A stretch of 64,000 nt of DNA. Source: Candidatus Omnitrophota bacterium. Lineage in GTDB: Bacteria; Omnitrophota; Gorgyraeia; Aquiviventales; JACQRC01. The stretch is from contig JACQRC010000089.1 in assembly GCA_016206665.1 (NCBI GenBank), positions 8,393 through 72,392 of the forward strand, read 5' to 3'. The notes beneath the pieces are model-generated. The model did not search any database. It was not told where the DNA came from and was given only the letters and a program-made list of their open reading frames with translations. This document shows, piece by piece, positions 211-15,710 of this stretch. The first letter of the stretch is position 1. Every line of letters begins with the position of its first letter. Both the position numbers and the translations under genes were made by a program.

Positions 211-332
211 CCATCCCGCCGGCGCCACCCGCCGTTCCGTTCCCTCGCTGTGACGTCATGCCGGCCCATCCCCACTCCCTTCCCCGCGGCCGGTGGGAGA
301 AATAAATTCACAACCCAGCCCGCCGCAGGCTC

Positions 333-341
333 TGGTATAAT
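333..341 (+). promoter_or_regulatory. extended -10 element TGGTATAAT upstream of msrA
   Basis: Exact TGnTATAAT at 333-341, ~110 bp upstream of the msrA start. A near-identical ctggtataatg box recurs at 3268-3276. Confidence 0.35.
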
Positions 342-453
342 GGCCGCGACCAGGAGGCCGTGGCGGTCATGCGCAGAGGTGGAGGAGGCAGGCCACACCG
401 CCGATGACTGCACCGGCATCAGCCTCCTGCCCGCCATTGTTCTCATGTGATGC

Positions 454-1086: not shown

Positions 1087-1320
1087 CGCACCCAGCACAA
1101 GGAGGTTCCCATGGCCAACCGTCCGCCTGCCTACAAGCCCCTTGTGGAGTAACTGGAACGTTGGTACCATGGTCTTCAACATGAACACGCCCATCGCTGG
1201 TTACTGCAACCCCGCTGACTCGTCCCCGCCCGTGACGCCGCGCTGATTCACTGGCCATCCGTTCGCGGCCAGCCGAGAGGCACCCCAGCATACCCGAGAC
1301 CAAGCGGGGCGAAGCTCGGC

Positions 1321-1349
1321 TTGACAATACAACTATTCAGTTGTATACT
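1321..1349 (+). promoter_or_regulatory. sigma70 promoter (TTGACA-N17-TATACT) with embedded palindromic operator ACAACT-attc-AGTTGT
   Basis: Perfect -35 at 1321-1326, 17-nt spacer, then TATACT -10. The 16-bp perfect inverted repeat 1329-1344 sits in the spacer, consistent with autoregulation by the downstream XRE HTH protein. Confidence 0.55.
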
Positions 1350-1375
1350 TATGGTGAGCTGAATGGCGTATCATT

Positions 1376-1693
1376 ATGAAATCTAGAAAATTAACACGGG
1401 TCCAGGATCACCTGCAAGAGAAGCTGCGCTCTCCCCAATTTCGAGAATCCTATGCGGTGGAGGTCTTTAAGGCGCAGATCGCCAGGGAAATCATCGAGGT
1501 CAGAATCAAAGAGGGATTGACGCAGGGGGAGCTGGCCCAGAAAATCGGCGTTACGCAGCAGGAGATTTCCAAGATTGAAAATGGCGAATTCCAGCAGATT
1601 AAGACCGTGATGAGAGTGTTGCTCGCCCTTCGGCATCGGACGACCGTCTGCTTGCCCGCCGAGGAAGTGCCTCTCGGGTCTCAGCGCGCTTGA
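1376..1693 (+). CDS. XRE-family helix-turn-helix transcriptional regulator (possible antitoxin-like)
   Basis: HTH_XRE signature (LTQGELAQKIGVTQQEISKIENGE). Confidence 0.7.
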   Translation: MKSRKLTRVQDHLQEKLRSPQFRESYAVEVFKAQIAREIIEVRIKEGLTQGELAQKIGVTQQEISKIENGEFQQIKTVMRVLLALRHRTTVCLPAEEVPLGSQRA

Positions 1694-1854
1694 TGGCCCG
1701 CGTCAAACAAGCCAAGCGCTCAGGCATTCCTCCCGCCGCCCTCGCCCGCTTCAAGGCCAAGGTGCTGAAGGGGCAGCCTGGCGACATTACCGCCAGTTCG
1801 ATGGAGGAATTGATTGCCAAGCTCCACCGCAAGAGCCGCCGCCGGCCAGCCTGA
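1693..1854 (+). CDS. small basic hypothetical protein (53 aa), possible partner of the XRE regulator
   Basis: ATG at 1693 overlaps the stop of the HTH gene (TGATG) and the ORF runs to TGA 1852-1854. Below the ORF-track length cutoff; no recognisable domain. Confidence 0.25.
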   Translation: MARVKQAKRSGIPPAALARFKAKVLKGQPGDITASSMEELIAKLHRKSRRRPA

Positions 1855-1949
1855 CCCTACCACCGCTAATTCCTGTTCCCCGCCCGCCGGATTTGCTACA
1901 ATAGGCTCTCCTTCCCCGGCTTCATTCAGCGCAAGGGAAAGCCACAGCA

Positions 1950-2105
1950 AGCAGACCACGGAGACACGGAAGCACGTGTCCGTGGTTCCGTGCACCTGGC
2001 CGTGGCGCGGCACTTCCGTGGTTCCGTGATTACCAAAGTACCTGGTACGCTTATTACCAAACACATCGCTAAATATGCTATAGTGTTTGGTAAACCAAAC
2101 ATCGC
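1950..2105 (+). promoter_or_regulatory. palindrome- and repeat-rich regulatory region upstream of the NTase gene pair
   Basis: CACGGA / TTCCGTG arms surround a central CACGTG at ~1957-1992. ccgtggttccgtg occurs twice (1978-1990 and 2015-2027) and ttaccaaa occurs twice. A perfect palindrome tgtttggtAAaccaaaca lies at 2084-2101, and a tatagt -10-like box at ~2071. Confidence 0.4.
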
Positions 2106-2107
2106 CT

Positions 2108-2416
2108 ATGGCCCACGTGATCAGAGCCGTCCTCCAAGAAGAATTAGCCAATTCCCGGCGGATGCAGCGCCGGTACGAACAGGCCCTGCGCAGGCTCGGC
2201 AAGGGCAGCCTGGTCAGGAAGCGCATCAGCGGCCATCCGTACTACTACCTGGCGCTGCGGGAAGGCAGGCGGGTGCGGTTCCAGTATCTGGGCAAGCTGT
2301 CGGCACAGGAACGTCAAGCGCGGCTGGCGCAGCATCGGCAGCGCGGGCAGTATCGGCGCCTCCTCCGGGAGGTCAAGCAGCAAATTCGCTTCCTGGAGCG
2401 GTCCCTGCGTGGCTAG
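2108..2416 (+). CDS. hypothetical basic protein, probable DNA-binding partner (antitoxin-like) of the downstream nucleotidyltransferase
   Basis: ORF with ATG at 2108 (the ORF track extends to a TTG at 2087). Arg-rich; its 3' end overlaps the downstream NTase start by 8 nt. Confidence 0.45.
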   Translation: MAHVIRAVLQEELANSRRMQRRYEQALRRLGKGSLVRKRISGHPYYYLALREGRRVRFQYLGKLSAQERQARLAQHRQRGQYRRLLREVKQQIRFLERSLRG

Positions 2417-3092
2417 CCAGCGCACGTTGTGCCAAGCGGTGCTCACGCGCCTGGCAAAGGCCGGTGTGCTGGAGGAGGTCGTGCTCATCGGGAGCTGGTG
2501 TCTGGAAGGCTACAAGAGCTACTTCGGCCGGCAGACACCGCTGACGGCGTTGCGGACGCGCGATATCGACTTTCTGGTGCCGCGACCAATGCGTATGCGA
2601 ACAGCGGTGGACGTGCCTGCCCTCCTGGACGATCTGGGCTTTATCCTGGACTTCCACCGGGGCGGGTACATCCGCCTCGTCCATCCGGAGCTAATTGTGG
2701 AGTTCCTCGTCCCAGAGCGGGGGCGGGGGACGGATCAGCCGGTGCGCTTACCCCAACTGAGCATCAACGCGCAATCCCTGCGCTTCTTGAATATGTTGGC
2801 GGAGCAGACGATCATGGCCACGCTGGAAGGGACCACGGTGCGCATGCCCCACCCGGCCGCCTTTGCGCTGCAGAAACTGCTCATCGCGCCGAGGCGTCAA
2901 GGCCATACGGGCAAGCAGGCCAAGGACGTGGAGGCAGCCATCGCGGTCCTGGAAGCCCTGCGCGCTCATGGAGAAACGGCCTCAGTGAGCCGGTGCTTTA
3001 CAGCACTGCCACGACGCTGGCAAACACACATTCGCCAGGCGCTCGGCGCGCGTCGCGAGCTGCGCGATTGGCTGGCGCTGCTGTCCAGTTAA
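2409..3092 (+). CDS. Pol-beta-superfamily nucleotidyltransferase, AbiEii/DUF1814-like (putative type IV TA toxin)
   Basis: GS-X10-DxD minimal NTase motif (LIGSWCLEGYKSYFGRQTPLTALRTRDIDFLV) near the N-terminus. ~227 aa; GTG start overlaps the upstream gene. Confidence 0.55.
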   Translation: MASQRTLCQAVLTRLAKAGVLEEVVLIGSWCLEGYKSYFGRQTPLTALRTRDIDFLVPRPMRMRTAVDVPALLDDLGFILDFHRGGYIRLVHPELIVEFLVPERGRGTDQPVRLPQLSINAQSLRFLNMLAEQTIMATLEGTTVRMPHPAAFALQKLLIAPRRQGHTGKQAKDVEAAIAVLEALRAHGETASVSRCFTALPRRWQTHIRQALGARRELRDWLALLSS

Positions 3093-3093
3093 C

Positions 3094-3252
3094 CACCGCG
3101 CCAAAGCCGCCGGAGCCGCCGTCATCTCCGAGCCCTCCGAGATGTTCTGGGGCGACCGGATGGCCTCCTTCAAAGACCCGGACGGCTACCTCTGGATGGT
3201 CGCCACCAACGTCGCTGACTTCGACCCCTCCAAAGTCCCGGCGGGGAAGTAA
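3094..3252 (+). pseudogene. orphan C-terminal fragment of a VOC/glyoxalase-family gene
   Basis: Frame-1 translation ..VISEPSEMFWGDRMASFKDPDGYLWMVATNVADFDPSKVPAGK* resembles the conserved C-terminal beta-strand region (DPDG-x-LWE) of glyoxalase/bleomycin-resistance proteins. There is no N-terminal part; it lies at the left boundary of the low-GC island. Confidence 0.4.
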
Positions 3253-3267
3253 AGGAGCGGCGGAATC

Positions 3268-3276
3268 TGGTATAAT
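3268..3276 (+). promoter_or_regulatory. extended -10 element TGGTATAAT upstream of the mod gene
   Basis: Exact TGnTATAAT. The surrounding tctggtataatg is shared with the msrA upstream box at 333-341. Confidence 0.3.
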
Positions 3277-3443
3277 GCGGCCAGCCTACCTGTTGGCATT
3301 ATCCATGCAGACCTGCTCGGAAAGACACACCACGGAAGCTCACGGCAACATGGAGAAATGAGAGCCAGTACCAATTTTATGTGTGTCAGCTTTTCGACAA
3401 TCAGCCGGTGGCTTAGCGGAAACACCAGACGGGAAAAGCAGTC

Positions 3444-5144
3444 ATGAGCGGATACGGCAGCTTGTCGAAAGAGCAGTTGATCGACAAAATCAAACGCTTA
3501 CAAAAACGTAAGAAATTTGGATTGGTTTGGGAGGACAAACTCGAAGATGTGGCAGAGCTTTGTAAGACAAAATTACCCGTGCTGGTCGATGAAAAAGGAG
3601 AGGAAATTTCGGATAGCGTGGCCGAGACAGCAAATGTGTTGATCGAAGGCGATAATTATCATGCACTCTCGGTTCTGAATTATACGCACAAGGGGAAAAT
3701 CGATTTCATTTATATAGACCCTCCTTACAACACTGGTGCAAAAGACTGGAAATATAACAACGCCTTTGTGGATGCTCAAGACCCCTACAGACATTCCAAG
3801 TGGCTATCCTTCATGGAGAAACGCCTCAAATTGGCAAAAAATCTTCTAAGGGATCAGGGAATTATATGTGTAACGATTGACGATTATGAAATGCCTCGTT
3901 TGTGGTCGCTTATGGATGAAATATATAACGAAAGTAATCATCTCGGAACCGTGGTTATAAGAAACAATCCGAAAGGAAGGAAAACGAAAAGGAAGGTATC
4001 GCTAATTCACGAATACGCCTTGTTTTACGGGCGAAGCGGTAATGCCAAGATTCAGAAATTAGAGGTCGCACCAGAGGACAAAACGCATAACTATGTGAAG
4101 GATAAGGACGACTCATGGTATCTGCCCGGCAACCTGAGAAAACAGGGAGTTGATAGTTTGGCCGTATCGCCTAAGACTGGGAGGTTGTCGGATAGATACT
4201 ACCCCATATATTACGATCCCAAGACGGGCAAGGTGAGTACCACCAAGAGTAAGCAATCAATAAAGATTTTGCCCATAGATAAGGACGGACAAAAAAGAAT
4301 ATGGCGTAGAGCCAAGCAAGTCATCGATGAGATGTTTGAGAGGGGTGATGTGTGGTATCAGAAAACCAAGTACGGCAATCAAATATTTTATAAATTTAGA
4401 GGCGGATTAGATGGCGAACCGCCAGAAAGCATTTGGTATGAGTCGAAATTTTCAGCAAGCGAACACGGGACACAAATACTCGACACAATTTTGGGAGTGC
4501 GAGAAACATTTCAGTATCCGAAATCCCCATACGCTGTTATGGAATGTATAAAAGTTGCTACCGCAAGCAGGGACGCGATCATACTGGATTTCTTCGCCGG
4601 TTCCGGCACTACCGGCCACGCAGCCTTAGAGTTAAATAGTGAAGATAATGGAAATCGCCAGTTCATTCTTTGCACAAATAATGAGAATGGCATTTGCAGG
4701 AACGTATGCTATCCCCGCATCAGGAAAGTCATGGCTGGATATACAGACTCAAAAAAGAAAAAAATAAATGGTTTAGGTGGAAATCTCAAATATTTTAAAA
4801 CGGATTTTGTTGAAGCCGAGCCAACTGATAAGAACAAAAAGAAATTAACGGTACAAGCGACTGAAATGCTTTGCTTGAAGGAGGGGGCGTTTAGAACAGT
4901 TGTTAACAAAAAATCTTTCAAAATTTTCAAGAATGCGAACCATTACGTGGGAATCATTTTTGACCACACAGCCATCCCCGATTTCAAGCAAGCGATCGAA
5001 AAGCTACAAGGCAAATTTAGCGTATACGTGTTCTCTCTTGGTGATGATGCTTTTGATGAGGAATTCGAGGATGTAAAACAAAAAGTGAAACTCTCGCCTA
5101 TTCCTGACGCGATCTTGAGAGTCTATCGAAGAATCTTCAAATGA
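3444..5144 (+). CDS. mod: Type III restriction-modification system, DNA methyltransferase (Mod) subunit, N6-adenine, beta class
   Basis: DPPY motif IV (IYIDPPYNTG) precedes the AdoMet motif I (LDFFAGSGTTGHAA), i.e. the beta-class order typical of Type III Mod. Low-GC codon usage; stop overlaps the res start (ATGA). Confidence 0.85.
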   Translation: MSGYGSLSKEQLIDKIKRLQKRKKFGLVWEDKLEDVAELCKTKLPVLVDEKGEEISDSVAETANVLIEGDNYHALSVLNYTHKGKIDFIYIDPPYNTGAKDWKYNNAFVDAQDPYRHSKWLSFMEKRLKLAKNLLRDQGIICVTIDDYEMPRLWSLMDEIYNESNHLGTVVIRNNPKGRKTKRKVSLIHEYALFYGRSGNAKIQKLEVAPEDKTHNYVKDKDDSWYLPGNLRKQGVDSLAVSPKTGRLSDRYYPIYYDPKTGKVSTTKSKQSIKILPIDKDGQKRIWRRAKQVIDEMFERGDVWYQKTKYGNQIFYKFRGGLDGEPPESIWYESKFSASEHGTQILDTILGVRETFQYPKSPYAVMECIKVATASRDAIILDFFAGSGTTGHAALELNSEDNGNRQFILCTNNENGICRNVCYPRIRKVMAGYTDSKKKKINGLGGNLKYFKTDFVEAEPTDKNKKKLTVQATEMLCLKEGAFRTVVNKKSFKIFKNANHYVGIIFDHTAIPDFKQAIEKLQGKFSVYVFSLGDDAFDEEFEDVKQKVKLSPIPDAILRVYRRIFK

Positions 5145-7360
5145 TGCTTCTGAAAGATTACCAGAACAACGCCATTAAGGAATTGCTCGGAAAAGCCAAA
5201 AAGCTTATTACCTACGGCGACGCGAAACGCATGGTTTTTAAAGCCCCCACCGCATCAGGTAAGACAATCATGATGGCCGAGTTCTTAAAGCAGTTATGCG
5301 AAGACAGGGAAGTTCTCGCTTCGTTTTCGCTTATCTGGACGGCCCCAAGGCAACTGCACATCCAGAGCAAGGACAAGCTGGAACAGTATTACGAGACAAG
5401 CCGCGCCCTTAGGTGTTCCCTCTTTGAGGAATTGGATGACAAACGGATTGACGAAGGCGAAATCCTCTTTTTCAACTGGGAGAGCATCAACAAGAACGAC
5501 AACATTTACATCCGCGAAAACGAGCAGGACAACAATCTGTCAAATGTTATAAGCCGGACGAAGGAGGAAGGCCGGATAATCGTTCTCGTCATTGACGAGA
5601 GCCATCACCATGCTACGAGCGAAATATCGCAAAACTTAATCCGCGACATTGACCCGAAGCTGACCATTGAAGTATCAGCTACCCCTGCGATGGAAAGCCC
5701 GGATGAGATTGTCTCCGTTCAGCTTGAGGATGTTAAGGCGGAGGCAATGATCAAGAAAGCTGTTATATTAAATCCGGACTTTGAAAATGTTCTCAGGGAC
5801 AGAAAAATTCAGAGTCAGTTAAGCAAGCAGTCCGAGGAGTTAGTTATTGAAACTGCTCTTAAGAAGCGAGATGCCCTTAAAGAAGCCTACAAGAAAGAGA
5901 GAGTAGGCGTCAATCCGCTCATTCTTATCCAGCTGCCGGACAGGAAAACGTCGCTTGAAGATGTGATTAAGGACAAAGTTATCGCAGTCCTCAAGAACAA
6001 GCACAAGATCACAGCTGAAAGTGGAAAGCTGGCAATCCATCTGGCGGAGCATAAAGAGAATCTTGACGACATTTCTGATCCCTACAACGAAGTAGAAGTT
6101 TTGATATTTAAACAAGCCCTTGCCTTGGGCTGGGATTGCCCCAGGGCTCATATCTTGGTTCTTTTCCGAGACTGGCAGAGCTTTGAGTTTTCGATCCAGA
6201 CAATAGGACGGATCATGCGTATGCCAGAACCTGATCATGGTCATTACGACACTGAAATCTTGAATTACGGATATGTATTTACCAACATCGAAAGTATAGA
6301 AATCCAAGAAGACTTGGCCAGAGATTACATCACGATTCACGCTTCGAAGCGTGGACGTGAATATTCACCTCTGTCGCTGCTTTCTTGCCACTCCAAGCGG
6401 TATCGCGAGAAAACTCGTTTGGCACCAATTTTTATCAAAGTTTTTCTGCAGGAAACTGCTGCCTACAGTCTGAGCCAGAGAATAAGGAAAAAAGCGAAGG
6501 GATTAAGCGCAAGATTTATTTCTGATTATAAGGCCGAGAATGTTGATGCATTAGCTGGCGCAAGCATAATCGGCGACAGGGCCATTAGAGTAACTGGCTG
6601 GGATTTACAAAAGTATTTTGATTACTTCATACGAAAGAGCCTCGCGCCGTTCTACGCCGAAGACAGGTCTATAGGCAGACTAAAAGAGGCCATTTACGAA
6701 TTTTTTGAGCAGGTCATGGGGATGCGCTATGAGGTTGTTCAAGAAGAGATTGTTCAAACGGTTTTAAGCGAAGGAAACCTCGTGCATTTTATTAATGTGA
6801 TCGACCAAGCTAAGGACAAATACATTGACTACATTTCAAGGCGGGAAAAAGAGCTTGAATTTGACCAGGGATGGGAAGTGCCAGAAACCATTGGTTTCAA
6901 CGCTCGCTACGCTATCGAAGATCGAAAAAAGTCCATCATGCACCCCTTTTTTAAGAGTGAGTATTCGGGTGTCGAAGCCGCATTTATGACTTTTTTAGAT
7001 GAACAGGACAAGGTAGTCTGGTGGTTCAAGAACGAAGCCAAGAATCCGGCTTATTTTGCTGTTCTCTACGAGGAAGATGGCGACAAAAGACCATTTTACG
7101 TTGATTTTATTGTCCAATTGAAAGATGGATTGATTGGGCTTTTCGATACGAAGGCCGGTCTGACCCAAAAAGTAGCTGGCCCGAAAGTCAATGGGCTTCG
7201 GACATATGTTGGGGAACAGAACAAAAAGGGCAAGAGGCTATTTGGCGGGATCGTTACCAATACCGATGGTCGGAATTACGCCGGGCGATGGGTTTACTTC
7301 AATAGGGAAGGAAAGGAATTATCCGGCAGCCTGGATAATTGGGAGACTTTGGCTTTTTAG
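5141..7360 (+). CDS. res: Type III restriction enzyme Res subunit (SF2 DEAD/DEAH helicase-nuclease)
   Basis: Walker A APTASGKT, DEAH-like box VIDESHHH and helicase motif layout. Translationally coupled to mod; low GC. Confidence 0.75.
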   Translation: MMLLKDYQNNAIKELLGKAKKLITYGDAKRMVFKAPTASGKTIMMAEFLKQLCEDREVLASFSLIWTAPRQLHIQSKDKLEQYYETSRALRCSLFEELDDKRIDEGEILFFNWESINKNDNIYIRENEQDNNLSNVISRTKEEGRIIVLVIDESHHHATSEISQNLIRDIDPKLTIEVSATPAMESPDEIVSVQLEDVKAEAMIKKAVILNPDFENVLRDRKIQSQLSKQSEELVIETALKKRDALKEAYKKERVGVNPLILIQLPDRKTSLEDVIKDKVIAVLKNKHKITAESGKLAIHLAEHKENLDDISDPYNEVEVLIFKQALALGWDCPRAHILVLFRDWQSFEFSIQTIGRIMRMPEPDHGHYDTEILNYGYVFTNIESIEIQEDLARDYITIHASKRGREYSPLSLLSCHSKRYREKTRLAPIFIKVFLQETAAYSLSQRIRKKAKGLSARFISDYKAENVDALAGASIIGDRAIRVTGWDLQKYFDYFIRKSLAPFYAEDRSIGRLKEAIYEFFEQVMGMRYEVVQEEIVQTVLSEGNLVHFINVIDQAKDKYIDYISRREKELEFDQGWEVPETIGFNARYAIEDRKKSIMHPFFKSEYSGVEAAFMTFLDEQDKVVWWFKNEAKNPAYFAVLYEEDGDKRPFYVDFIVQLKDGLIGLFDTKAGLTQKVAGPKVNGLRTYVGEQNKKGKRLFGGIVTNTDGRNYAGRWVYFNREGKELSGSLDNWETLAF

Positions 7361-7462
7361 CGAGCAAAGAGAGGGCCCAAAAGCACCGAGTACTTCGATG
7401 CCCTGCTGAACTATGTATCATGCCCACACACTTGGTATTGTGTTTACCGAATTAAAATTGGC

Positions 7463-8620
7463 ATGACCCAATTTTCGGGTACTCTACTGGCAAGCGGCGT
7501 TGTAGCCGCAGCGACGACGGCCACCCTACAGTTCCGCAGCGTTAGATGGGAACGACGGAAAGAATTTCTCGAGCACCAGCTGCGGTTGTATGGTCCCGCC
7601 TACGCCCTAATAGCACAGAATCGCGATGCTTTTGAACGAATCAAGAGCATTCATGTGCAGGGTGAGAAGCGCTTGAGTGGTGTAATCGGGGCAGAGAAAG
7701 ACATTGATGCAACGATAGCGGTGGCAAACGAACACATCAGACGAATCGTCTTGAGTAATAATGAAATCCTTGAGGACATGCTTAAGAAGAATCTACACTT
7801 CATCGATCCGGATGACATCCAGCTTGTAACGCAATTTTTCCATGATATGGCCAATTTAAAGGTGGAGACCTCAGCAGACGTGGGAACAAAGTTACCACTT
7901 CTAATGGCGCTGGATCTTCCCAATATATCATTTATGCGGCCCGGCCTTATTGAGTGCTTTGAGCAAAGATTTAGGCAGAAACAGGTTCAGTTTCGAGAAA
8001 TGCTAGGGAGCAGCAAGAGGCATCAACGGGATTTGCCAACGAACAAAAGACCGCTTTGCGCTGTTGGTTTACCTCCACGCATCTGGCGGACGTTTGCTAT
8101 ACCTGTCTTGACCGGCTTGATGGTGGCGCTCTTCTGGCATTTCTTTGAAGTGGTAAAACCGTGGAAGATAACATTATTCTTACCCTATGCGTATGAATAT
8201 GCCTATAGAGGAGCCACCAACACTACAGGCAATCAAAGCAGAGAAATCCTGCCCGTCGTCCCCATCCGCGTGCGTCTTACTGACAAAGCGAGTGGGTTTG
8301 TGTTTGCCGTTCACAATGATAACATTCGGAGTCTCCACGGAGTCTCGTTACATCTGCAACTACCGCCGGGTGTTGAGGTGACTGATCCAGGACCATTCAG
8401 AGCGTTTTGGCCAAACGAGGAATACTTTTTCTCTTTTGGGGACGCGGTGTTGAATCACGGAGTTTTCTATGCGACTGAGGTGCGTAATACTGCAGGCGAA
8501 CTGAAGGGTTCGATTCAACTAAAATTCAGCCAGCCAAGAGAGTACGAGATAATAGCCACTGTGAGCGGAGAAGACATGCTTCCGGCAGAGAAGAAAATCA
8601 AAATTGTCGTAGTACCCTAG
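7463..8620 (+). CDS. hypothetical membrane-associated protein (385 aa) of unknown function in the defence island
   Basis: Long low-GC ORF. N-terminal hydrophobic segment and an internal TM (AIPVLTGLMVALFWHFF); no recognisable catalytic motifs. Confidence 0.45.
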   Translation: MTQFSGTLLASGVVAAATTATLQFRSVRWERRKEFLEHQLRLYGPAYALIAQNRDAFERIKSIHVQGEKRLSGVIGAEKDIDATIAVANEHIRRIVLSNNEILEDMLKKNLHFIDPDDIQLVTQFFHDMANLKVETSADVGTKLPLLMALDLPNISFMRPGLIECFEQRFRQKQVQFREMLGSSKRHQRDLPTNKRPLCAVGLPPRIWRTFAIPVLTGLMVALFWHFFEVVKPWKITLFLPYAYEYAYRGATNTTGNQSREILPVVPIRVRLTDKASGFVFAVHNDNIRSLHGVSLHLQLPPGVEVTDPGPFRAFWPNEEYFFSFGDAVLNHGVFYATEVRNTAGELKGSIQLKFSQPREYEIIATVSGEDMLPAEKKIKIVVVP

Positions 8621-8666
8621 ACGCTTTACGCTATCCATAATGCCCGAAGCGGTTATTGACAGAATT

Positions 8667-8712
8667 GGCCAGGTTGAACCTCAGCGGAACGTGGCCCGAG
8701 TGAATTAAGTAT
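8667..8712 (+). repeat. 46-bp repeat, copy 1 (hairpin-forming), left of the 8733-9200 gene
   Basis: ggccaggttgaacctcagcggaacgtggcccgagtgaattaagtat matches 9190-9235 at 43 of 46 positions. It contains an imperfect stem ggccaggtt / aacgtggcc. Confidence 0.7.
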
Positions 8713-8732
8713 CTGTCCATGGAGTTGCAGTC

Positions 8733-9200
8733 ATGGATGCAAAGATTGTTGTGAAAATTTTAGGTCTTACCATAACTTCGGCTGGCGTCGTTCTGAGCCT
8801 GCTCAATCTGAAGGGTTTTCTCAAGTACCCAGAGCGCCTAAATTTTGCGCATTTGGCGCTCGAAACGAGCGAAGGCATTCCGCTTTCGCATCCTGGAGCT
8901 AAGTCCTTTATGAGTCGCTTCCCGCCACCTCCAACAGACAGCAAGGGTACGTTCACTCACTTCGTAAAAAATGCAATACAATTTACTGGTGGCGGGACCC
9001 CATTGTCAGGCACTGTTAAATACATGTATCCTGATGGAAGGCGGACTGCTGCGGTCGCAACATTTGAAGACGTAAAGCGCTGGGCCGCAGAATCACGTTA
9101 TCCGTGGCTTGCCTGGTGGCTGACAGTCGTAGGACTTCTCATCACTAGTGCAGGTGTCTTTTGGGACTGGCGGACAGCAGATCCCACCGGGCCAGGTTGA
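8733..9200 (+). CDS. hypothetical two-TM membrane protein (155 aa)
   Basis: Hydrophobic helices at the N-terminus (KILGLTITSAGVVLSLL) and C-terminus (WLAWWLTVVGLLITSAGVFW). Low GC; its stop codon lies inside repeat copy 2. Confidence 0.4.
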   Translation: MDAKIVVKILGLTITSAGVVLSLLNLKGFLKYPERLNFAHLALETSEGIPLSHPGAKSFMSRFPPPPTDSKGTFTHFVKNAIQFTGGGTPLSGTVKYMYPDGRRTAAVATFEDVKRWAAESRYPWLAWWLTVVGLLITSAGVFWDWRTADPTGPG

Positions 9201-9235
9201 ACCTCCGCGGAACGTGGCCCGATTGAATTAAATAT
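9190..9235 (+). repeat. 46-bp repeat, copy 2, right of the 8733-9200 gene
   Basis: ggccaggttgaacctccgcggaacgtggcccgattgaattaaatat is a direct repeat of 8667-8712. Confidence 0.7.
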
Positions 9236-9276
9236 TGCGGCCCTCAAATCGTTTATTACTTTGGGTAATATTTTGC

Positions 9277-9305
9277 TTGACAAACATCCGGCCGGTTCGT
9301 ATAGT
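9277..9305 (+). promoter_or_regulatory. consensus sigma70 promoter TTGACA-N17-TATAGT driving the non-coding region upstream of the RT module
   Basis: Perfect -35 at 9277-9282, exact 17-nt spacer, TATAGT -10 at 9300-9305. The nearest ORF start is ~450 nt downstream. Confidence 0.6.
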
Positions 9306-9311
9306 GCTTCT

Positions 9312-9758
9312 GGTGGATCCGATGGGACCATCGGACGTTCGATCTTTGATAGCTGCTACCTCCTTTTACTTTTAGCGAGGCGCGGTACCAAGAGTCGCTG
9401 AGAAGCGGCTGACCAGCCTGCCCCATGAAGACACCGTCATCCAGGACAGCCAATAGTGCGGTTGTCAAGGAAGGCGGGGTCTGTACGAAGGAGCTGGCGC
9501 TGGGTTAGTGTTCGGGCATGTGGTAAGCCAGAGAATTAAGGTGACCTGAGGCCAGACCCACGTAGCAGAACACTGGAAGACCCGGAACCTGTTCCAGTTG
9601 GGCAAGCCTACCCGTGCGGGTAGGAAATGACGTAGGCAGGGGTTCCAGGATGTTTTGGAAGAAGACGGGATCGCTTCCCCTTCCCCGCGGTGCGCGCCGA
9701 GCTTATGCAGGGGTTCCGGGTGCGCAACCCGGCTAGCTGCAGAGGAGGTGATGAAACA
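9312..9758 (+). ncRNA. candidate structured non-coding RNA (retron msr-msd-like or other RT-associated ncRNA); boundaries approximate
   Basis: It lies between the strong promoter and the first plausible RBS/ATG (GGAGGTG..ATG at 9759), with no convincing ORF. Multiple perfect hairpins are present: ccgatgg-ga-ccatcgg (9320-9335), cctacccg-tgc-gggtagg (~9607-9625), ccgggt-gcgca-acccgg (~9714-9730) and actggaa..ttccagt (~9572-9598). ggggttccRgg is a direct repeat. Confidence 0.35.
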
Positions 9759-10004
9759 ATGAGTAAGTGGCAGCTTATTTCAAAGGTCCTGGAGTTGATC
9801 TCGAAGTTAGAAGAGATCATCACCAGCGAGGGGAAGCGAAATTCTGAAGCGTCTGAGCTTCAGGAGTGCAGGGGCGACCTCAGGACTCTGCTAAAAAAAC
9901 TGCGGAGCCCCGGCGAGTCGGTCAACCCGAACGAAGTTCTACTGCTGTCATATAAAGCCGTAGAACACATAGCCTCCTGGCTCGAAGGAAAAGAAGAGAA
10001 GTAG
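9759..10004 (+). CDS. small hypothetical helical protein (81 aa)
   Basis: AGGAGGTGA RBS 6-7 nt upstream of ATG 9759. Predicted charged/coiled-coil protein. May instead be part of the ncRNA. Confidence 0.35.
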   Translation: MSKWQLISKVLELISKLEEIITSEGKRNSEASELQECRGDLRTLLKKLRSPGESVNPNEVLLLSYKAVEHIASWLEGKEEK

Positions 10005-10116
10005 AAACGATCAGACGCGGAAGACCCGTCTTTACTTCCAACAATAAAGTTTCTCCTGCCATTTTTCCTTCCTTACAATACACCAAGAACCTAAAAAGCG
10101 AACAAGGACGAACATC

Positions 10117-10410
10117 ATGAACGTCGGTGAAGCAATAAAAACGCTGCGGGTGAGGCGGCAGATAACTCAAAAGTTCCTGGCAGAACGATGCGGGATTACG
10201 CAAGGCTTCCTATCCCTTGTTGAAAGAGGAGACAGGGAGCCAGGGTTTGACTTAGTTGAGAAGATATCAGAAACGCTAGGCGTCCCACCACAGCTTATAC
10301 TCCTGCTTGCTTGTGAGAAATACACGCGGGGCAAACGCTACTCAAAACCTTTAAGGAAGATTGCTTTGACTCTAGACGAGCTACTTCACGCCTATTCCGC
10401 CGCTTGCTAA
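10117..10410 (+). CDS. XRE-family HTH DNA-binding protein, translationally coupled to the reverse transcriptase
   Basis: HTH_XRE signature (ITQKFLAERCGITQGFLSLVERGDREP). Stop TAA overlaps the RT start codon (TAATG). Confidence 0.7.
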   Translation: MNVGEAIKTLRVRRQITQKFLAERCGITQGFLSLVERGDREPGFDLVEKISETLGVPPQLILLLACEKYTRGKRYSKPLRKIALTLDELLHAYSAAC

Positions 10411-11333
10411 TGCATCCTCATCGAGCAGGGTCCACCATTTTATCGCCTGAAGAATTCGGGCGAGTTTTGGGCTACGAGCCAGCCTTCCTCCAGGACATGG
10501 TTAAGAATATCGAAAAAAACTACAGCCCCTATTTGGATAGAACAGGAAAGAAGCCACGCTGGATTGCCAGACCATCTGAAACTCTTAAGGGCGTCCAGCG
10601 TAAGATTCTCGATAACTTCCTGGAACTGGTCTCGTTGCCGAATTACGTCATTGGTGGAGTAAAGGGAAGGAAACACGCAGAACATCCAAAGTTACACGTA
10701 GGCCACCCTATCGTTGTGACGCTTGACGTCAAAGATTGCTACCCCAATATCACTTATAAGCAAGTTCTCGAGGTGTTCCGCGAGATCGGATTCTCCAAAG
10801 AAGTTGCGGTTTTGGCTACACGGCTGACAACGTACAGACGTCGGCTACCGTTGGGTGCTCCTAGTAGTACTCAGCTTGCCAATTTAATACTGAAACCAGC
10901 GGTGACGCGTGTCTGCGCCCTCGCAGAACAGGCAGGATTGGATGTTGCGAGTCAGTATATAGATGATCTGGCTTTCTCGGGAGATCAACTGCCTAACGAT
11001 TTCATCACTCTGGCGATCCGAGAATTCTCAAGACACATGATTAAGATTAACCGCAAGAAAATTCAAGTTATGCGTAGAGGCCATACACAACTTGTGACAA
11101 GAAGGCTGGTGAATGCTCGGGTCGCTCTGCCCACAAAGGAAAGACACAGAGTTAGGGCTGCACTTCACCAGCTCGGTAAGCTTGAAGCAAGTGATTCCTC
11201 ATATAGCAAGCAGTTCCTCAGTGTGCGTGGACGGATTCTCTCTTTAAGGAAATTACATCCACATCTTGGGCAACGTCTGATGGCGCAGCTCAACAGTCTG
11301 CAGAAGTCCACAACCAAGAAAACATCGCACTAA
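10410..11333 (+). CDS. retron-type reverse transcriptase (~307 aa, Ec86-like)
   Basis: RT motifs are present: 1-2 IVVTLDVKDCYPNI, 4 LPLGAPSSTQLANLIL, 5 YIDDLAFSG (YxDD). A retron-like C-terminal region is present (KKIQVM..QLVTRRLVN, corresponding to the VTG motif). The block order and many residues parallel the E. coli Ec86 retron RT. There is no maturase/X or endonuclease domain. Confidence 0.8.
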   Translation: MHPHRAGSTILSPEEFGRVLGYEPAFLQDMVKNIEKNYSPYLDRTGKKPRWIARPSETLKGVQRKILDNFLELVSLPNYVIGGVKGRKHAEHPKLHVGHPIVVTLDVKDCYPNITYKQVLEVFREIGFSKEVAVLATRLTTYRRRLPLGAPSSTQLANLILKPAVTRVCALAEQAGLDVASQYIDDLAFSGDQLPNDFITLAIREFSRHMIKINRKKIQVMRRGHTQLVTRRLVNARVALPTKERHRVRAALHQLGKLEASDSSYSKQFLSVRGRILSLRKLHPHLGQRLMAQLNSLQKSTTKKTSH

Positions 11334-11554
11334 TCTGCACTAGTGCCTTCCCGCGCGATAATAGGCCAAAAGAAACCGTACGGTGCTCCAGGGGGGCTGA
11401 CTATCCGTGAAAGCGCAGCGTTGCCAATGACCGCCAAAGTTATAGCCCAGAGAAAATTCGGATCGGCGCTATCATCTTGAATTCGAGGAATGCATCACCT
11501 AACTACAGGCCGAAATAATTTCCGTGTCCCTGAATTTTAAAGGGGGAAGTTTCA

Positions 11555-12202
11555 ATGGTAAAACTTTTCCTCGATATAGAAACCCTGCCCGCTGAAGAGT
11601 CCTTCAAAGCTGAAATTCAGAAGGGGATTCTTGCGCCGCGGGGTCCTAAAAAGAAGGCGGCAAAGGTCGCCGCGGCGCCAGCGACACCTAAGGAACTGGA
11701 AGAGCAATTGCGACAAACGGCCCTCAGCGGGGACTTTGGGCGAATTCTCTGTATTGGATACTGTAAAGAACCTCCTGCGGGGAGTTCTGCTGAGATACTG
11801 CAGGGTGGCGAGCGCGAGATATTGGAAAAGTTTTGGGTGATTGCGAGAGATGTCGATCTTTTTATTGGGCACAACGTTATGGAGTTCGATTTAAGGTTCA
11901 TCTACAAAAGGTCGATCATTCACAAAGTGAGGCCGACGAAAAACGATTTGAGCTTCGCACGATATCGCAGCCAACCAATCTACGACATCATGCGAGAGTG
12001 GGAAAAGTGGGACGTACAGACGTACACCTCTCTTGACAGAATGGCCAAAGTTTTGGGATTGGAGACTTCAAAGAAGGGACTGTCTGGAGACAAGGTTTAC
12101 GACGCTTTCCTGGCTGGGAAACTTAATGAGATCTACGAATATTGCAAGGCGGATGTTGAGCTGACGAGGCAGATTTATAAGCGAATGAATTTCGAGATCT
12201 AG
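11555..12202 (+). CDS. predicted 3'-5' exonuclease related to the exonuclease domain of family-B DNA polymerases (DEDD/RNase H-like fold)
   Basis: N-terminal LFLDIETLP (Exo I DxE). A C-terminal YCKADVELT (Exo III YxxxD) is present. Length ~215 aa, typical of stand-alone PolB-like exonucleases; low GC like the RT. Confidence 0.65.
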   Translation: MVKLFLDIETLPAEESFKAEIQKGILAPRGPKKKAAKVAAAPATPKELEEQLRQTALSGDFGRILCIGYCKEPPAGSSAEILQGGEREILEKFWVIARDVDLFIGHNVMEFDLRFIYKRSIIHKVRPTKNDLSFARYRSQPIYDIMREWEKWDVQTYTSLDRMAKVLGLETSKKGLSGDKVYDAFLAGKLNEIYEYCKADVELTRQIYKRMNFEI

Positions 12203-12382
12203 TAAAGGTACCAGCTTCCTCCGTGCCAGGTTAACCGAAGCATAGCTGATGAGCACAAAACTAATTGACCCAGACAAAATCCAGATCGGCGACGTGGTGT
12301 TGGTGGCCACGCGGAATCGGATTACGGAGTGGGTGCAACGGAAGCTGGGGTTTGGGGATCGGAGGGCCGTTGAGGACGACAC

Positions 12383-12417
12383 TTGACATGCATAAAAACT
12401 CATGCTATCTTATGCAT
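12383..12417 (+). promoter_or_regulatory. sigma70-like promoter (TTGACA-N17-TATCTT) overlapped by the inverted repeat ATGCATAA-N14-TTATGCAT (operator) for vapBC
   Basis: -35 at 12383-12388, -10 at 12406-12411. Palindromic arms lie at 12388-12395 and 12410-12417. Confidence 0.5.
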
Positions 12418-12430
12418 TGGAGGTGACCCC

Positions 12431-12631
12431 ATGCGGACGACCCTGGACATCAACGCGCGGTTGCTGCGGGACGCCATGCGGCGCGCCCGCCTCAAGACGA
12501 AGACCGAGACGGTGGAGCGCGGGCTGGAGGAGCTCATCAATACCGAGCGGCGCCGGCGGCTGATCCGAGCCCGGGGCGCGGGTTACGGATTGACCTTCGA
12601 GGACTTCCTGCGTTCCCGCCGGGATGAGTAG
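12431..12631 (+). CDS. vapB: type II antitoxin, VapB-like
   Basis: Small Arg-rich protein immediately upstream of, and overlapping by 8 nt, a PIN-domain gene. ATG at 12431 follows the GGAGGTGA RBS. Confidence 0.7.
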   Translation: MRTTLDINARLLRDAMRRARLKTKTETVERGLEELINTERRRRLIRARGAGYGLTFEDFLRSRRDE

Positions 12632-13028
12632 ACAGCTCGTCCTCGCGGACACCTCGGTCTGGGTGGCGCACCTGACCGGGCGTCACACAGCGGTGACGAA
12701 CGCCCTGCAAGAGCTCCTGTCCGCACACCGCGTGGCCGTCAATGCCGTGATTCGGCTCGAGCTGTTGACCGGCGCCCGGGACGAGGCCCAGTACGCCGAA
12801 CTCGATGACGCCCTGGGCGGCTTGCACGCGGTGGAGCTGACGGAGGCCGTCTGGCGCCAGGCCGAGCGGCTGCGGTTCGACTTGCGACGGCGCGGGCGGT
12901 TGATTCCCGCCCTGGATGTGCTCATCGCCTCCTGCGCGATGGCGTATGATTGCGCCGTGCTGCATGCCGACCGCCACTTCGACTTCATCGCGCGCAGCGC
13001 TCCACTGACGATTCATCAGCCCGCCTAA
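12624..13028 (+). CDS. vapC: type II toxin VapC (PIN-domain ribonuclease)
   Basis: PIN-domain acidic residues (LADTSVW.., ..LELLTGA.., ..PALDVLIAS..) and size ~134 aa. Confidence 0.8.
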   Translation: MSRQLVLADTSVWVAHLTGRHTAVTNALQELLSAHRVAVNAVIRLELLTGARDEAQYAELDDALGGLHAVELTEAVWRQAERLRFDLRRRGRLIPALDVLIASCAMAYDCAVLHADRHFDFIARSAPLTIHQPA

Positions 13029-13306
13029 GTGCTTGCCGTGGAAGCCGTACCAGGTTCCAGGGGGACAGGTTATCAGTCAAAGTACCAGGGCACTTGGTGC
13101 CAGGGTGAGGAGACCGGCGCATGGGAAAATCCTTGCCTTCAGCTTTGGCCGGCCTATAATATCATTACCCTTCCGTACGAAGCGATCTTATCGTGGAGAT
13201 GTTACCCGCGGCAGGGGCGAGACCTGGAGGGTGTGGCAGGCAGGTCGCCGGCGGGTAGCTACATCGTCCACGATCCTACCAGGCCCACTTTCATGTTATA
13301 CTTAGC

Positions 13307-13564
13307 GTGAGTGAACCGTACGACCCTACGGCCTTTCAGGAGATCATCTGTACCGGCCACGCCCGTGAACGCATGGAGAAGCGCGGCGTCAGCCGGGACG
13401 ATGTGGAGACGACACTGCAGCGTCCCGATGTCATCTTGCCGGTCATGCCGGATGGGACGAGAGAATTGCGCCGGCGTATCGGGCGGCGAGTGCATTATGT
13501 CGTCATCGCCCTGAAGCGCCAGCAGGCTATCTTGATTACCACGGGGTGGAGCCGAGAACCATGA
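13307..13564 (+). CDS. DUF4258-family protein (putative toxin of a TA pair)
   Basis: CTGHARERMEKRGVSRDDVE motif characteristic of DUF4258. Overlaps the downstream partner gene. Confidence 0.5.
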   Translation: MSEPYDPTAFQEIICTGHARERMEKRGVSRDDVETTLQRPDVILPVMPDGTRELRRRIGRRVHYVVIALKRQQAILITTGWSREP

Positions 13565-13857
13565 AACCGAGCAAATTTGCCGAGCATCCCACCGTCAAGC
13601 TGGTGACCTATGACCCGGTGGCCCACGCCGCCTACTTCCTGTTCGAGGACCGGCCGGTGGCCGAGACCAAAAAGTTTAACGCCTATATCTCGTTAGATTT
13701 GGATGAGGCCGGCCGGTTGATCGGCATCGAGGTGCTGCACCTGAATGGTTCCAAGCTGCATGAGGTGGAGGAGGCTCTTCAAGAGGTCGCGCGAATGTTT
13801 CGGCGGCCCGAAGTTACCCACATTCACCTCGACGCCCTGCAGGAAGCTTTTCAGTAA
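13546..13857 (+). CDS. DUF2283-family protein (putative antitoxin partner)
   Basis: VTYDPVAHAAYFLF..DLDEAGRLIGIEVL pattern typical of DUF2283. This pairing with DUF4258 is common. Confidence 0.5.
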   Translation: MEPRTMKPSKFAEHPTVKLVTYDPVAHAAYFLFEDRPVAETKKFNAYISLDLDEAGRLIGIEVLHLNGSKLHEVEEALQEVARMFRRPEVTHIHLDALQEAFQ

Positions 13858-13941
13858 ACACGGTACGCCTACCATCTCTCCTACGAAACAGCGCAAGGTC
13901 AATTGATGTGCCATAAAAATACCAGCCACCTCGGTACCAGG

Positions 13942-14535
13942 ATGAGGCTGCCGATGCTACGGCGCTGGGTGCAGGTGGGCGCGGGTCTGGTCTGTTGTCA
14001 CGCGATACTGTCAGGAGGTGAGATGATGGGCACGGCGCACGCGAGTGAGACGGAGAAGGCCAAGGTGGCGGTCGGGCAGACCGCGCCCGAGTTTACGCTC
14101 TTGGATCAAGCCGGCCAGCCCCAGCGGTTGGCCGACTACCGGGGGCAGTGGGTGCTGGTCTACTTTTATCCCAAGGATGATACGCCCGGCTGCACGAAGG
14201 AGGCCTGCGGTCTCCGGGATCGCTTCGCGGAGTTCAAGAAGCTCAAGGCGGTCGTGTTAGGGGTGAGCGCGGATTCGGTGGAGAGCCACAAGAAGTTTGC
14301 CGACAAGTTCACGCTGCCGTTTCCCCTGCTCGCCGACACCCAGAAGCAGGTCGTGCAGGCCTACGGGGTGTGGGGGCAGAAGTCGTTCATGGGCAAGACG
14401 TACCTGGGGATCAGCCGCAGCTCATTTCTCATCGATCCGCAGGGGAAGATCGCGAAAATCTATCCGAAGGTCAAGCCCGAAGAGCACACGGCGGAGATCC
14501 TGCAGGATTTGGCGCAGCTCGGCGCGCGCGGCTGA
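13942..14535 (+). CDS. bcp: thiol peroxidase Bcp (peroxiredoxin Q family) with N-terminal signal/extension
   Basis: Peroxidatic motif FYPKDDTPGCTKEAC and AhpC/TSA fold. The start could also be ATG 13903. Confidence 0.8.
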   Translation: MRLPMLRRWVQVGAGLVCCHAILSGGEMMGTAHASETEKAKVAVGQTAPEFTLLDQAGQPQRLADYRGQWVLVYFYPKDDTPGCTKEACGLRDRFAEFKKLKAVVLGVSADSVESHKKFADKFTLPFPLLADTQKQVVQAYGVWGQKSFMGKTYLGISRSSFLIDPQGKIAKIYPKVKPEEHTAEILQDLAQLGARG

Positions 14536-14539
14536 TGCG

Positions 14540-15433
14540 ATGCAGGTGACGGTGCGCGTGACGGCGCGATCGAGACGGCCGGGTATCGTCCAACAGGGCG
14601 ATGGCAGCCTCCACGTCCGAGTGACGGCGCCGGCGGAGGGCGGGCGGGCGAATGCGGCGGTCATCGCAGCGCTGGCGCGCCACTTCGGCGTGCCGAAGCA
14701 GGCGGTCGCCATCGTGCGCGGCCACACGAACCGGCAAAAAGTGGTGGAGATTGCGCGGGAAGGAGTGACGATGCGAAACAAGCCATGGAGGGTGGTGGCC
14801 ATCGTGGCCATGGCCGGCTGGCTGGTGGCCGGTCAGGCCTTGGCGGCGACGACGAAGGATAAAGAGGGGCTGTTGGCGCTGGGCGCGAAGGCGCCGGGGT
14901 TTGCGTTGCAGGATGTGGTGACGCTTCGGGAATGGTCACTGAAGGACTGGGCCGACAAGGAAGTTCTCGTCGTCATGTTTATTTGTCGCCATTGTCCGTA
15001 TGTGCAGCGAGTCAAGGGCGGGTTAGCGCAGTTGGGCAGGGATTATGCCGACAAAGATGTGGGGATTGCGGCGATTAGCAGCAATGATCCGAAGGCGATC
15101 CCAGAGGATAGCCCGGGGAAGTTAAAGGGGATGGCGCTGGAAGAGGGGTTTGTGTTTCCGTTGCTGTTCGATGAGACCCAGAAGGTTGCGGCGGCCTACA
15201 CGGCGCTGTGCACGCCGGATATCTTCGTCTTCGATGCGCAGCGGCGGCTGGTCTACCGTGGCCAGTTCGACGATGCCCGGCCGGGCAACCGCTCACCGGT
15301 GACCGGCCAAGACGTCCGCGCCGCCATCGAGGCGGTCCTGGCGGGCCAGCCCGTTTCCTCCAATCAGCGCCCCAGCGTCGGCTGCGGGATTAAGTGGCAA
15401 CCCGGCCGCGAGCCGGCATACACCCGACGATAA
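14540..15433 (+). CDS. DUF167 (YggU-like) domain fused in frame to a membrane/secreted thioredoxin-like (TlpA/redoxin, CxxC) domain
   Basis: The N-terminal 76 aa match DUF167 (VRVTA..DGSLHVRVTAPAEGGRANAAVIAALARHFGVPK..VRGHTNRQKVVEI). The same frame then continues without a stop into MRNKPWRVVAIVAMAGWLVAG (signal/TM) and a redoxin domain with FICRHCPY. An alternative internal start at ATG 14779 is preceded by GGAAGGAG. Confidence 0.5.
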   Translation: MQVTVRVTARSRRPGIVQQGDGSLHVRVTAPAEGGRANAAVIAALARHFGVPKQAVAIVRGHTNRQKVVEIAREGVTMRNKPWRVVAIVAMAGWLVAGQALAATTKDKEGLLALGAKAPGFALQDVVTLREWSLKDWADKEVLVVMFICRHCPYVQRVKGGLAQLGRDYADKDVGIAAISSNDPKAIPEDSPGKLKGMALEEGFVFPLLFDETQKVAAAYTALCTPDIFVFDAQRRLVYRGQFDDARPGNRSPVTGQDVRAAIEAVLAGQPVSSNQRPSVGCGIKWQPGREPAYTRR

Positions 15434-15636
15434 GATCGGGTGAGGCTCGTCCACCGAGGTTGTGATTACCATCGTCTTCGTCTGCTCCAACAGTCAATCT
15501 GTTGCGACTTTTCAACATCTGCTCTCCACTCTAAGCCTACCCAGCGAGGCTCCCCCGTTGCCATCCAGTCGTAAGTAACAGATAACAGCATATAAATAAA
15601 CAGGTTATAGATTTCGGGCTCTTCCAAGCCAGAGAG

Positions 15637-15655: not shown

Positions 15656-15710
15656 TATGTCTGTCATAGACAGTCCAAGTCGAACTTATCTATTAGGAGG
15701 CGTTAGACAG

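Follow-up and report, generated by a model that had tools for sequence, protein, structure and literature searches.

The 64-kb stretch of Candidatus Omnitrophota DNA analysed here (the window, to which all coordinates refer) contains an interval of 12.8 kb bounded by the core genes msrA (454-1086) and bcp (13903-14535), and a large part of this interval, about 3253-12248, is occupied by low-GC DNA filled with defence genes. We consider this block, with a probability of about 0.75, to be a horizontally acquired mosaic of self-contained defence modules in an msrA-bcp hotspot. According to PADLOC, two recognised defence systems are clustered in it, namely a Type III restriction-modification (R-M) operon and a Type VI retron, with vapBC and other toxin-antitoxin (TA)-like pairs alongside, and both composition and codon usage of the block are distinct from those of the host. 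Composition, domain content, intact catalytic motifs, homology at the level of single modules and the absence of mobility genes are the observations on which this reading is built. All modules of the block are encoded on one strand, and every gene, promoter, RNA and repeat copy located below between msrA and bcp lies on the + strand.

The compositional anomaly is seen by each of the measures applied. In steps of 500 nucleotides (nt), GC content amounts to 0.39-0.57 over 3251-12250 against 0.62-0.69 on either flank, the background (the window minus the block) having a 1-kb mean of 0.656 ± 0.027 and a minimum of 0.574. GC content at third codon positions (GC3) is 0.47 for Mod and 0.53 for Res of the R-M operon, 0.52 and 0.47 for two orphan proteins designated unk385 and unk155, 0.50 for both the helix-turn-helix (HTH) protein and the reverse transcriptase (RT) of the retron, 0.57 for the exonuclease Exo and 0.65 for the small retron open reading frame (ORF) coding for the small protein (SP), compared with 0.87 for msrA, 0.84 for bcp and 0.90 for Wza/Wzz. 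Tetranucleotide divergence (Kullback-Leibler, KL) from the window background reaches 0.30-0.55 in the block, that is 5-8 times the value for the background itself (0.064 ± 0.020, maximum 0.148). The sharp drop in GC and GC3 between about 3253 and about 12380, which a first-pass annotation of this DNA had reported, is thus borne out by all three measures, and the sliding profile, being far from uniform, sets the block clearly apart. Inside the block GC depends on the module (0.42-0.45 for the R-M genes, 0.48-0.53 for the remainder). The transition falls at 3250-3350 on the left and between the stop codon of Exo (12202) and about 12400 on the right, and the small modules on both flanks (an HTH gene at 1376-1693, a pair made of a 109-amino acid (aa) protein and an NTP_transf_8 nucleotidyltransferase, vapBC and a DUF4258/DUF2283 pair) have intermediate GC3 of 0.67-0.84.

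The gene content that the first-pass annotation ascribed to the block, comprising Mod and Res, two family-less proteins with hydrophobic segments, HTH with RT and a PolB-exo2 exonuclease, was recovered with Pfam and PADLOC. Of its description of these genes as defence genes, the part concerning the Type III R-M operon and the RT module, which turned out to be a Type VI retron, has been retained, while the exonuclease matches no defence model. The block resembles a mosaic whose modules move separately more than it does a single unit, with the relatives of unk385, of the retron and of the R-M pair sitting in unrelated contexts, and the fact that homology to the closest R-M relative, a phage contig, ends at the limits of the R-M module suggests mosaic assembly. 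The concept of defence islands is said to go back to Makarova and colleagues in 2011, and surveys of the E. coli pangenome have revealed integration hotspots between core genes. The msrA-bcp interval resembles such hotspots in combining defence and TA modules between two housekeeping genes with atypical composition and mosaic content, as well as in the occurrence of each module's relatives in unrelated contexts, phage accessory regions included, but differs from them by its uncultured Omnitrophota host and by the lack of integrase, tRNA and attachment (att) repeats. The block is, in this sense, a genuine but ordinary acquired defence island, without visible means of moving.

A broken gene, a possible remnant and small modules at the edges

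On the left the block adjoins a C-terminal VOC/glyoxalase remnant (3094-3252), which was correctly noticed in the first-pass annotation and confirmed by a match to positions 87-121 of 121 in the Pfam profile PF00903 (E 2.1e-6). It comprises 52 codons without a start codon, and its GC3 of 0.89 is host-like. The stop codon of the remnant is intact and lies on the side of the low-GC block, and the broken 5′ end is on the side of the NTP_transf_8 gene, since VOC character in the upstream in-frame translation ends at about 3094, directly after the TAA codon of that gene (3090-3092). The right end of the 109-aa/NTP_transf_8 module coincides with the break in VOC. At the right edge, a 45-aa ORF previously placed at 12245-12382 does exist, with coordinates 12249-12386 and with intermediate composition (GC 0.56, GC3 0.70), and its proposed status of a gene remnant is only faintly indicated by comparison with its relatives. 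A search of 1.84 billion representatives gave six matches; those that align are 37-86 aa long and have the N-terminal part of about 37 residues in common. The relatives carry on with a conserved S-x-W-x-H-V-A-G-like stretch, and similarity here stops at about 12360, some 20 nt 5′ of the vapB promoter, the intact N-terminus being on the block side. One relative has a sub-threshold match to the N-terminus of Peptidase_C92 (E 0.13). The 45-aa ORF may be what is left of the N-terminal part of a longer gene.

The block had been described as bounded by gene remnants, words that suggest an island breaking both genes, and this suggestion does not survive inspection of their polarity: the broken ends of both point away from the block, which makes the msrA-bcp interval look like a hotspot struck several times and not like the site of a single insertion that damaged both genes. 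We infer the donors and the order of events as follows. Low-GC DNA from donors with GC of about 41-50% would land in the intergenic gap separating two small genes already resident there and now lies between the intact ends of the VOC and 45-aa ORF remnants; then, by separate insertion or deletion events, the GC-rich NTP_transf_8 module would have removed the 5′ part of the resident VOC gene, and the vapBC module would probably have clipped the 45-aa ORF from outside.

The neighbours on the left side (1376-3092) include an XRE/HTH_37 protein (1376-1693, Pfam) and the two overlapping genes for the 109-aa protein and the NTP_transf_8 nucleotidyltransferase (2087-3092; PF12281, 2.1e-27). Their GC3 of 0.67-0.79 is between that of core genes and that of the island, and a search against PADLOC gave no match for any of them (for the pair, none at E ≤ 0.01). 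The label “AbiEii-like” formerly attached to the pair was not sustained, because the nucleotidyltransferase matches PF12281 only and no PADLOC model, AbiE included, recognises the pair. The two genes may form a TA-like module that has not been characterised before; a literature search on PF12281 found nothing. To the right of the block, where the first-pass annotation had placed VapBC and DUF4258/DUF2283 modules and Pfam agrees, a promoter TTGACA-17-TATCTT (12383-12411, score 10/12 in the promoter scan) precedes vapB and vapC, which extend to 13028 and are followed by the DUF4258/DUF2283 pair (13307-13857), the GC3 of these right neighbours (12383-13857) being 0.72-0.84. The vapBC promoter overlaps a near-perfect palindrome ATGCATAA...TTATGCAT (12383-12430), and this palindrome is probably the VapB operator.

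The Type III R-M operon and the orphan proteins behind it

The left junction merges with the 5′ leader of the R-M operon (3253-3443), along which GC falls from 0.66 to 0.48 in 100-nt steps and in which TGGTATAAT, an extended -10-like motif absent from the list of the promoter scan, was noticed by eye. The modification subunit Mod (3444-5144, 566 aa) is recognised by PADLOC as MTase_III (6.8e-81) and by Pfam as N6_N4_Mtase (4e-31), and its sequence matches those of Mbo45V (1.9e-43) and EcoP15I Mod (1.9e-25) in PDB. The order of its motifs, DPPY at residue 92 and then FAGSG at residue 384, is that of a beta-class N6-adenine methyltransferase. Res, a Type III-like restriction subunit (5141-7360, 739 aa), matches ResIII (1.2e-19) and Helicase_C (5e-4) of Pfam, carries the helicase motifs DESH, SAT and QTIGRIMR in a superfamily 2 (SF2) N-terminal half, has a helicase-type match in PHROGs and gives a weak NCBIfam restriction-endonuclease match over residues 510-665 (1.7e-5). 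The stop codon of Mod overlaps the start codon of Res (ATGA, 5141-5144). Attribution to Type III follows from the class of Mod (DPPY before FxGxG, with relation to a known Mod) and from the adjacency of mod and res in one operon, a pairing that recurs in the related loci L100-L103 and on plasmids. The weak side of this attribution is Res, for which the PADLOC match to REase_III (2.1e-16) covers residues of about 150-390 only, the C-terminal PD-(D/E)xK-like motif YVDF...FDTK was spotted by eye, and a comparison with PDB sequences returned no match.

Set beside EcoP15I and EcoP1I, the operon shows the same arrangement, with Mod first and its stop codon overlapping the start codon of Res, and, as for EcoP15I, Mod is a related beta-class N6-adenine methyltransferase. 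Res seems to combine an SF2 core with a C-terminal PD-(D/E)xK-like motif, as it does there. It departs from classical Type III systems by the length of Res (739 aa against about 870-990 aa) and by the partial REase_III alignment without a PDB match. Mod is predicted to methylate its own site, and the Mod-Res complex would move along DNA by means of ATP and cut unmodified invading DNA, activities that are deduced from sequence.

The closest R-M relative is found at 6313-10226 of a phage contig, L100 (IMG/VR UViG_3300035698_013396), with 74% aa identity for Mod, 69% for Res and 70% nt identity over 3883 nt (3519-7364 of the window). This contig has GC of 0.41 and carries a gene for the tail-fibre J protein (phrog_31, 1e-70), and the R-M pair occupies an accessory position of the phage contig downstream of the J gene. 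Directly 5′ of its Mod stands an HTH gene resembling control (C) protein genes, in contrast to the window, where no C protein gene is present upstream of Mod. A more distant R-M relative (L101, 46% identity) is separated from a tyrosine integrase by 2.3 kb. EcoP1I is carried by phage P1, and a phage-borne connection is common to it and to the operon described here, whose closest relative is phage-borne.

The R-M operon is followed by the gene of unk385 (7463-8620, 385 aa, 100% identical to HY597_05720), a protein that matches no family in Pfam, PADLOC, NCBIfam or PHROGs. Its layout is modelled as an N-terminal helical module, one clear transmembrane helix at about 207-231 seen by hydropathy, and a C-terminal beta-sandwich. 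The AlphaFold2 model built from 5 sequences has a mean predicted local distance difference test (pLDDT) score of 58, and Foldseek against PDB gives generic Ig-like beta-sandwich matches with E > 1e-3; a functional inference from the fold was dropped on account of this low pLDDT and the generic character of the matches. The family is rare, with 5 homologues among 5.8 billion clusters and, as for unk155, no match on plasmids, and it is modular, its N-terminal and C-terminal halves occurring alone too. In one locus (L081, 1651-2823) the homologue comes after a DruE C-terminus and a Cas4-like nuclease, in another (L082, 9656-10342) the N-terminal module only comes after HmaA-HmaB-HmaC, and neither locus has R-M or retron genes near it. 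In 3/3 readable contexts, therefore, the unk385 gene is on the same strand and 30-102 nt 3′ of a helicase/nuclease defence system, be it Type III R-M, HmaABC or DruE with the Cas4-like nuclease.

The next gene, coding for unk155 (8733-9200, 155 aa, hydrophobic helices 3-27 and 124-144 by hydropathy), forms a singleton cluster and likewise has no match in Pfam, PADLOC, NCBIfam or PHROGs. It is framed exactly by two 46-nt direct repeats found by repeat search at 8667-8712 and 9190-9235, identical at 43 of the 46 positions, the second of which contains the stop codon of unk155 and lies directly 5′ of the retron unit. Two matches of this kind were obtained against 0 expected in shuffles. No similarity around the two copies goes past the 46 nt, the repeat was not found in the other fetched loci or viral contigs, and its hairpin does not exceed shuffled sequences in stability. 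The repeat-framed unk155 has the appearance of a small cassette that entered between the unk385 gene and the retron promoter. A GTTGAAC motif at the repeat raised the thought of integron attC, which is not claimed here. A bolder proposal, that the unk385 family is an unrecognised accessory or effector riding downstream of DNA-targeting defence systems and that unk155 with its repeats is a small mobile cassette of a kind not described before, appears to us rather doubtful.

The Type VI retron and the exonuclease

Judged from its sequence, the RT module forms a complete Type VI retron with SP-HTH-RT architecture. The Type VI class was introduced by Mestre et al. (2020; PMC7736814), and its members are organised as non-coding RNA (ncRNA), SP, HTH and RT (bioRxiv 10.1101/2025.10.22.683967; 10.64898/2026.04.27.721009). 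The identity of the module is given by the PADLOC matches of two proteins, RT to RT_VI and HTH to HTH_VI. RT (10404-11333; 309 aa from TTG, 288 aa in the NCBI annotation) scores best with RT_VI among 37 PADLOC retron RT models (190.6 bits, 8.1e-57; 170.7 bits for the runner-up), is recognised by Pfam as RVT_1 and by NCBIfam as a member of the retron St85 family (2.7e-34), and retains the catalytic YIDD at residue 185. The Cro/C1-type HTH protein (10117-10410, 97 aa) matches HTH_VI along its full length (2e-19) and HTH_3 of Pfam (1.7e-13). Assignment to RT-clade 3 by model score is accompanied by the overlap of the 3′ end of HTH (10410) with the start of RT (10404) and by the SP ORF upstream of HTH. 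SP itself (9759-10004, 81 aa), a candidate toxin, is preceded by GGAGG 8 nt 5′ of its ATG and has no segment above the hydropathy threshold used.

Two loci, L094 and L095, contain the nearest RT relatives for which context is available, and both have an SP-like ORF, HTH and RT. Identity to L094 and L095 amounts, respectively, to 52% and 45% for RT, 62% and 55% for HTH, and 43% (E 2e-22) and 37% (E 5e-18) for the ORFs in the position of SP. The maximum for RT in the collection of 5.8 billion clusters is 54%, plasmid-borne retron RTs show about 25-30%, and a search of metagenome contigs with RT yielded one short locus. RT alone found nothing in viral contigs, where its alignment gave distant retrons only (≤36%).

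Transcription of the unit may be assigned to the promoter TTGACA-17-TATAGT (9277-9305), the best sigma-70-like promoter site in 3000-13000 (11/12), which is kept in L094 and L095. The inverted repeat TTATTAC-N5-GTAATA over its -35 element (9240-9283), a candidate HTH operator, is common to L094 (about 3940-3975) and L095 (about 2560-2600), and the non-coding blocks shared with these loci further include CGATCTTTGA and two copies of CAGGGGTTCC. Between promoter and SP lies the template of a putative structured, msr-msd-like RNA (9310-9758), which would correspond to the 5′ part of the “hybrid RNA”, with a minimum free energy of -192 kcal/mol and a z-score of -3.45, none of 100 shuffled sequences being as stable. 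Its 5′ CCUCCUUU segment is predicted to pair with the ribosome-binding site (RBS) of SP in a consensus fold with L094 containing compensatory changes; 20/90 pairs are changed on both sides, a weak figure coming from an alignment of two sequences. An Rfam scan of 1-20000 gave no match, and neither a1/a2 nor the priming G was recognised in this RNA.

In Retron-Vpa2, the “hybrid RNA” serves as RT template and encodes a translationally repressed small toxin (10.1101/2025.10.22.683967), and in Retron-Sen3 SP is a constitutively made toxin that HTH neutralises, inhibition of RecBCD being the trigger of defence (10.64898/2026.04.27.721009). The unit described here has in common with both the order ncRNA, SP, HTH and RT, the overlap of HTH with the RT start, RT_VI and HTH_VI as the best PADLOC models, a putative structured RNA of about 450 nt before the small ORF, a repeated RNA motif and the predicted sequestration of the SP RBS. 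It differs by the divergent RT, by an SP without assignment to published SP clusters and by the Omnitrophota host. The pairing of CCUCCUUU with the SP RBS is weakly suggestive of translational repression of the Vpa2 type. By analogy with these two retrons, the structured RNA would contain the toxin ORF as well as the template for RT, HTH and RT together would hold the small toxin silent, and interference of a phage with recombination or RecBCD would free the toxin and lead to abortive infection.

The gene next to the retron codes for a stand-alone DEDDy 3′-5′ exonuclease of PolB-exo type, Exo (11555-12202, 215 aa; DNA_pol_B_exo2, PF10108, 3.4e-16), in which the motifs DIE, NVMEFD and YCKAD are intact. 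It corresponds to phrog_403 (1.4e-22) and gave no match with PADLOC. An Exo homologue adjoins ERF and a single-stranded DNA-binding protein (SSB) in a Yersinia prophage, matches were found in 165 phage records, and no close relative was seen among viral contigs. The likeness to phage PolB-type exonucleases (PF10108; PHROG 403, “DNA polymerase exonuclease subunit”) extends to the domain, the intact DEDDy residues and about 30% full-length identity, but Exo stands alone between retron and vapBC, without a polymerase, ERF or SSB partner. The gene 3′ of RT varies from locus to locus, coding for 140 aa and 199 aa proteins in L094/L095 and for the exonuclease here; Exo as a retron component is therefore ruled out, and it probably rides along as a passenger or represents the remnant of a vehicle of phage origin. 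Literature on PF10108 gave nothing useful.

Origin of the block

The signs by which mobile elements are usually recognised were not found. The remark in the first-pass annotation that no integrase or transposase is visible holds, such domains being absent from every ORF between msrA and bcp, and its proposal to look for flanking direct repeats or tRNA/tmRNA attachment sites brought nothing beyond chance in the window: no tRNA or tmRNA is encoded there, and the longest repeat common to both edges has 9 nt, which is at chance level, as repeats of at least 8 nt arise in about 59% of shuffles. AGTAAAGG, present at both edges (3248 and 12201), was rejected as a boundary repeat for the reason that 8-mers are expected by chance. 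A prophage test detected no structural, lysis, integrase or repressor genes in the block, PHROGs matching Res (as helicase) and Exo only. The empty site was also sought: exact look-ups of MsrA, VapC and Mod yielded no record; among the GTDB species-representative matches listed, the best MsrA relative has 62% identity and no synteny; the nearest bcp relatives (94% aa, 93% nt) are similar over the gene itself and not beyond either end of it; and more distant bcp relatives are in other contexts, one with msrA 3.3 kb off and another with methylases and a SIR2-like gene upstream. L091 and L092, relatives sharing the same bcp protein (78% aa), differ upstream of it, where L091 has two Dam-type methylases, uncharacterised genes and a SIR2-like gene that L092 lacks, so the bcp neighbourhood is variable and defence-rich in relatives too.

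Several observations do not favour acquisition of a mosaic. Neither an empty site nor a syntenic relative was recovered among the MsrA matches listed and the bcp contexts looked up, because of which the exact insertion point and recency of the block are unproven; every protein of the island forms a cluster of its own at 90%; the left junction is covered by no second assembly; and the similar GC3 of about 0.5, the single strand and the absence of host-like DNA between modules would fit transfer en bloc equally. This last point feeds the explanation that the 9-kb block came in one event as cargo or decayed remnant of one mobile element such as a prophage, satellite or integrative element, which has been left without integrase and att sites. 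The position of the nearest R-M relative in a phage accessory region by the tail-fibre gene, the integrase near L101 and the phage replication/recombination type of Exo speak in the same sense, and we keep such an arrival as a possible, though secondary, scenario. It is opposed by the lack of any phage structural gene, integrase or excisionase between msrA and bcp and of flanking repeats, by homology to L100 that ends exactly at the R-M module, by the unrelated neighbours of unk385 and retron relatives, and by the GC of the R-M genes, lower than that of the remainder.

An artefact of metagenome assembly or binning, by which foreign DNA was joined into an Omnitrophota contig, seems very improbable. 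The source is a metagenome-assembled genome, the left junction has the shortcoming just named, and the Logan assemblies have no record of the Mod protein; yet two chimeric joins would be required, no shared edge repeat could mislead an assembler, and the gradual change of GC over 100-nt steps with regulatory-looking sequence on both sides is that of real intergenic junctions. Moreover, independent Logan assemblies of SRR12113385 reproduce 6998-10285 at 100% and 11180-13783 at 99.92%, the latter stretch spanning the right junction from Exo to vapBC and DUF4258. Least credible of all is the view of the block as an old resident of the lineage whose low GC has been kept by selection. Defence genes such as R-M and retrons are often AT-rich in many hosts, and the failure to find an empty site is compatible with long residence; against this, the GC3 gap of about 0.35-0.40 to core genes is far above gene-to-gene variation in the window, the GC of the R-M genes is still near that of their phage-borne relative (0.41), which implies little amelioration, and the neighbouring TA modules have the intermediate GC3 expected of older arrivals. 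A mosaic of modules brought into a repeatedly used msrA-bcp hotspot therefore remains the reading we prefer.

Outside the interval, a small MerR-type HTH gene (15642-15893, GC3 0.67) lies inside a local GC dip (0.55-0.59 over 15251-16000), and a second, milder dip is seen at 42000-47000 (0.60-0.63 against about 0.66). At 14531-15433 a DUF167-like sequence (YggU, by eye) and a thioredoxin-like protein with a signal peptide share one frame without an intervening stop, pointing to a fusion or, alternatively, to a mis-start.

Taken as a whole, the locus adds a compact defence hotspot to the few immune loci characterised so far in the phylum Omnitrophota, and the polarity of gene remnants at its edges makes it possible to tell a single insertion damaging both genes from repeated hits on a hotspot. 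Its main points are the divergent Omnitrophota Type VI retron and the rare unk385 family recurring 3′ of helicase/nuclease defence systems, in three loci only; in all other respects the island is of a routine kind. The retron extends the recently characterised SP-HTH-RT Type VI architecture to Omnitrophota with divergent RT, HTH and SP, and the predicted sequestration of the SP RBS would make it valuable as an outgroup when the two mechanisms proposed for Type VI retrons are put to the test.

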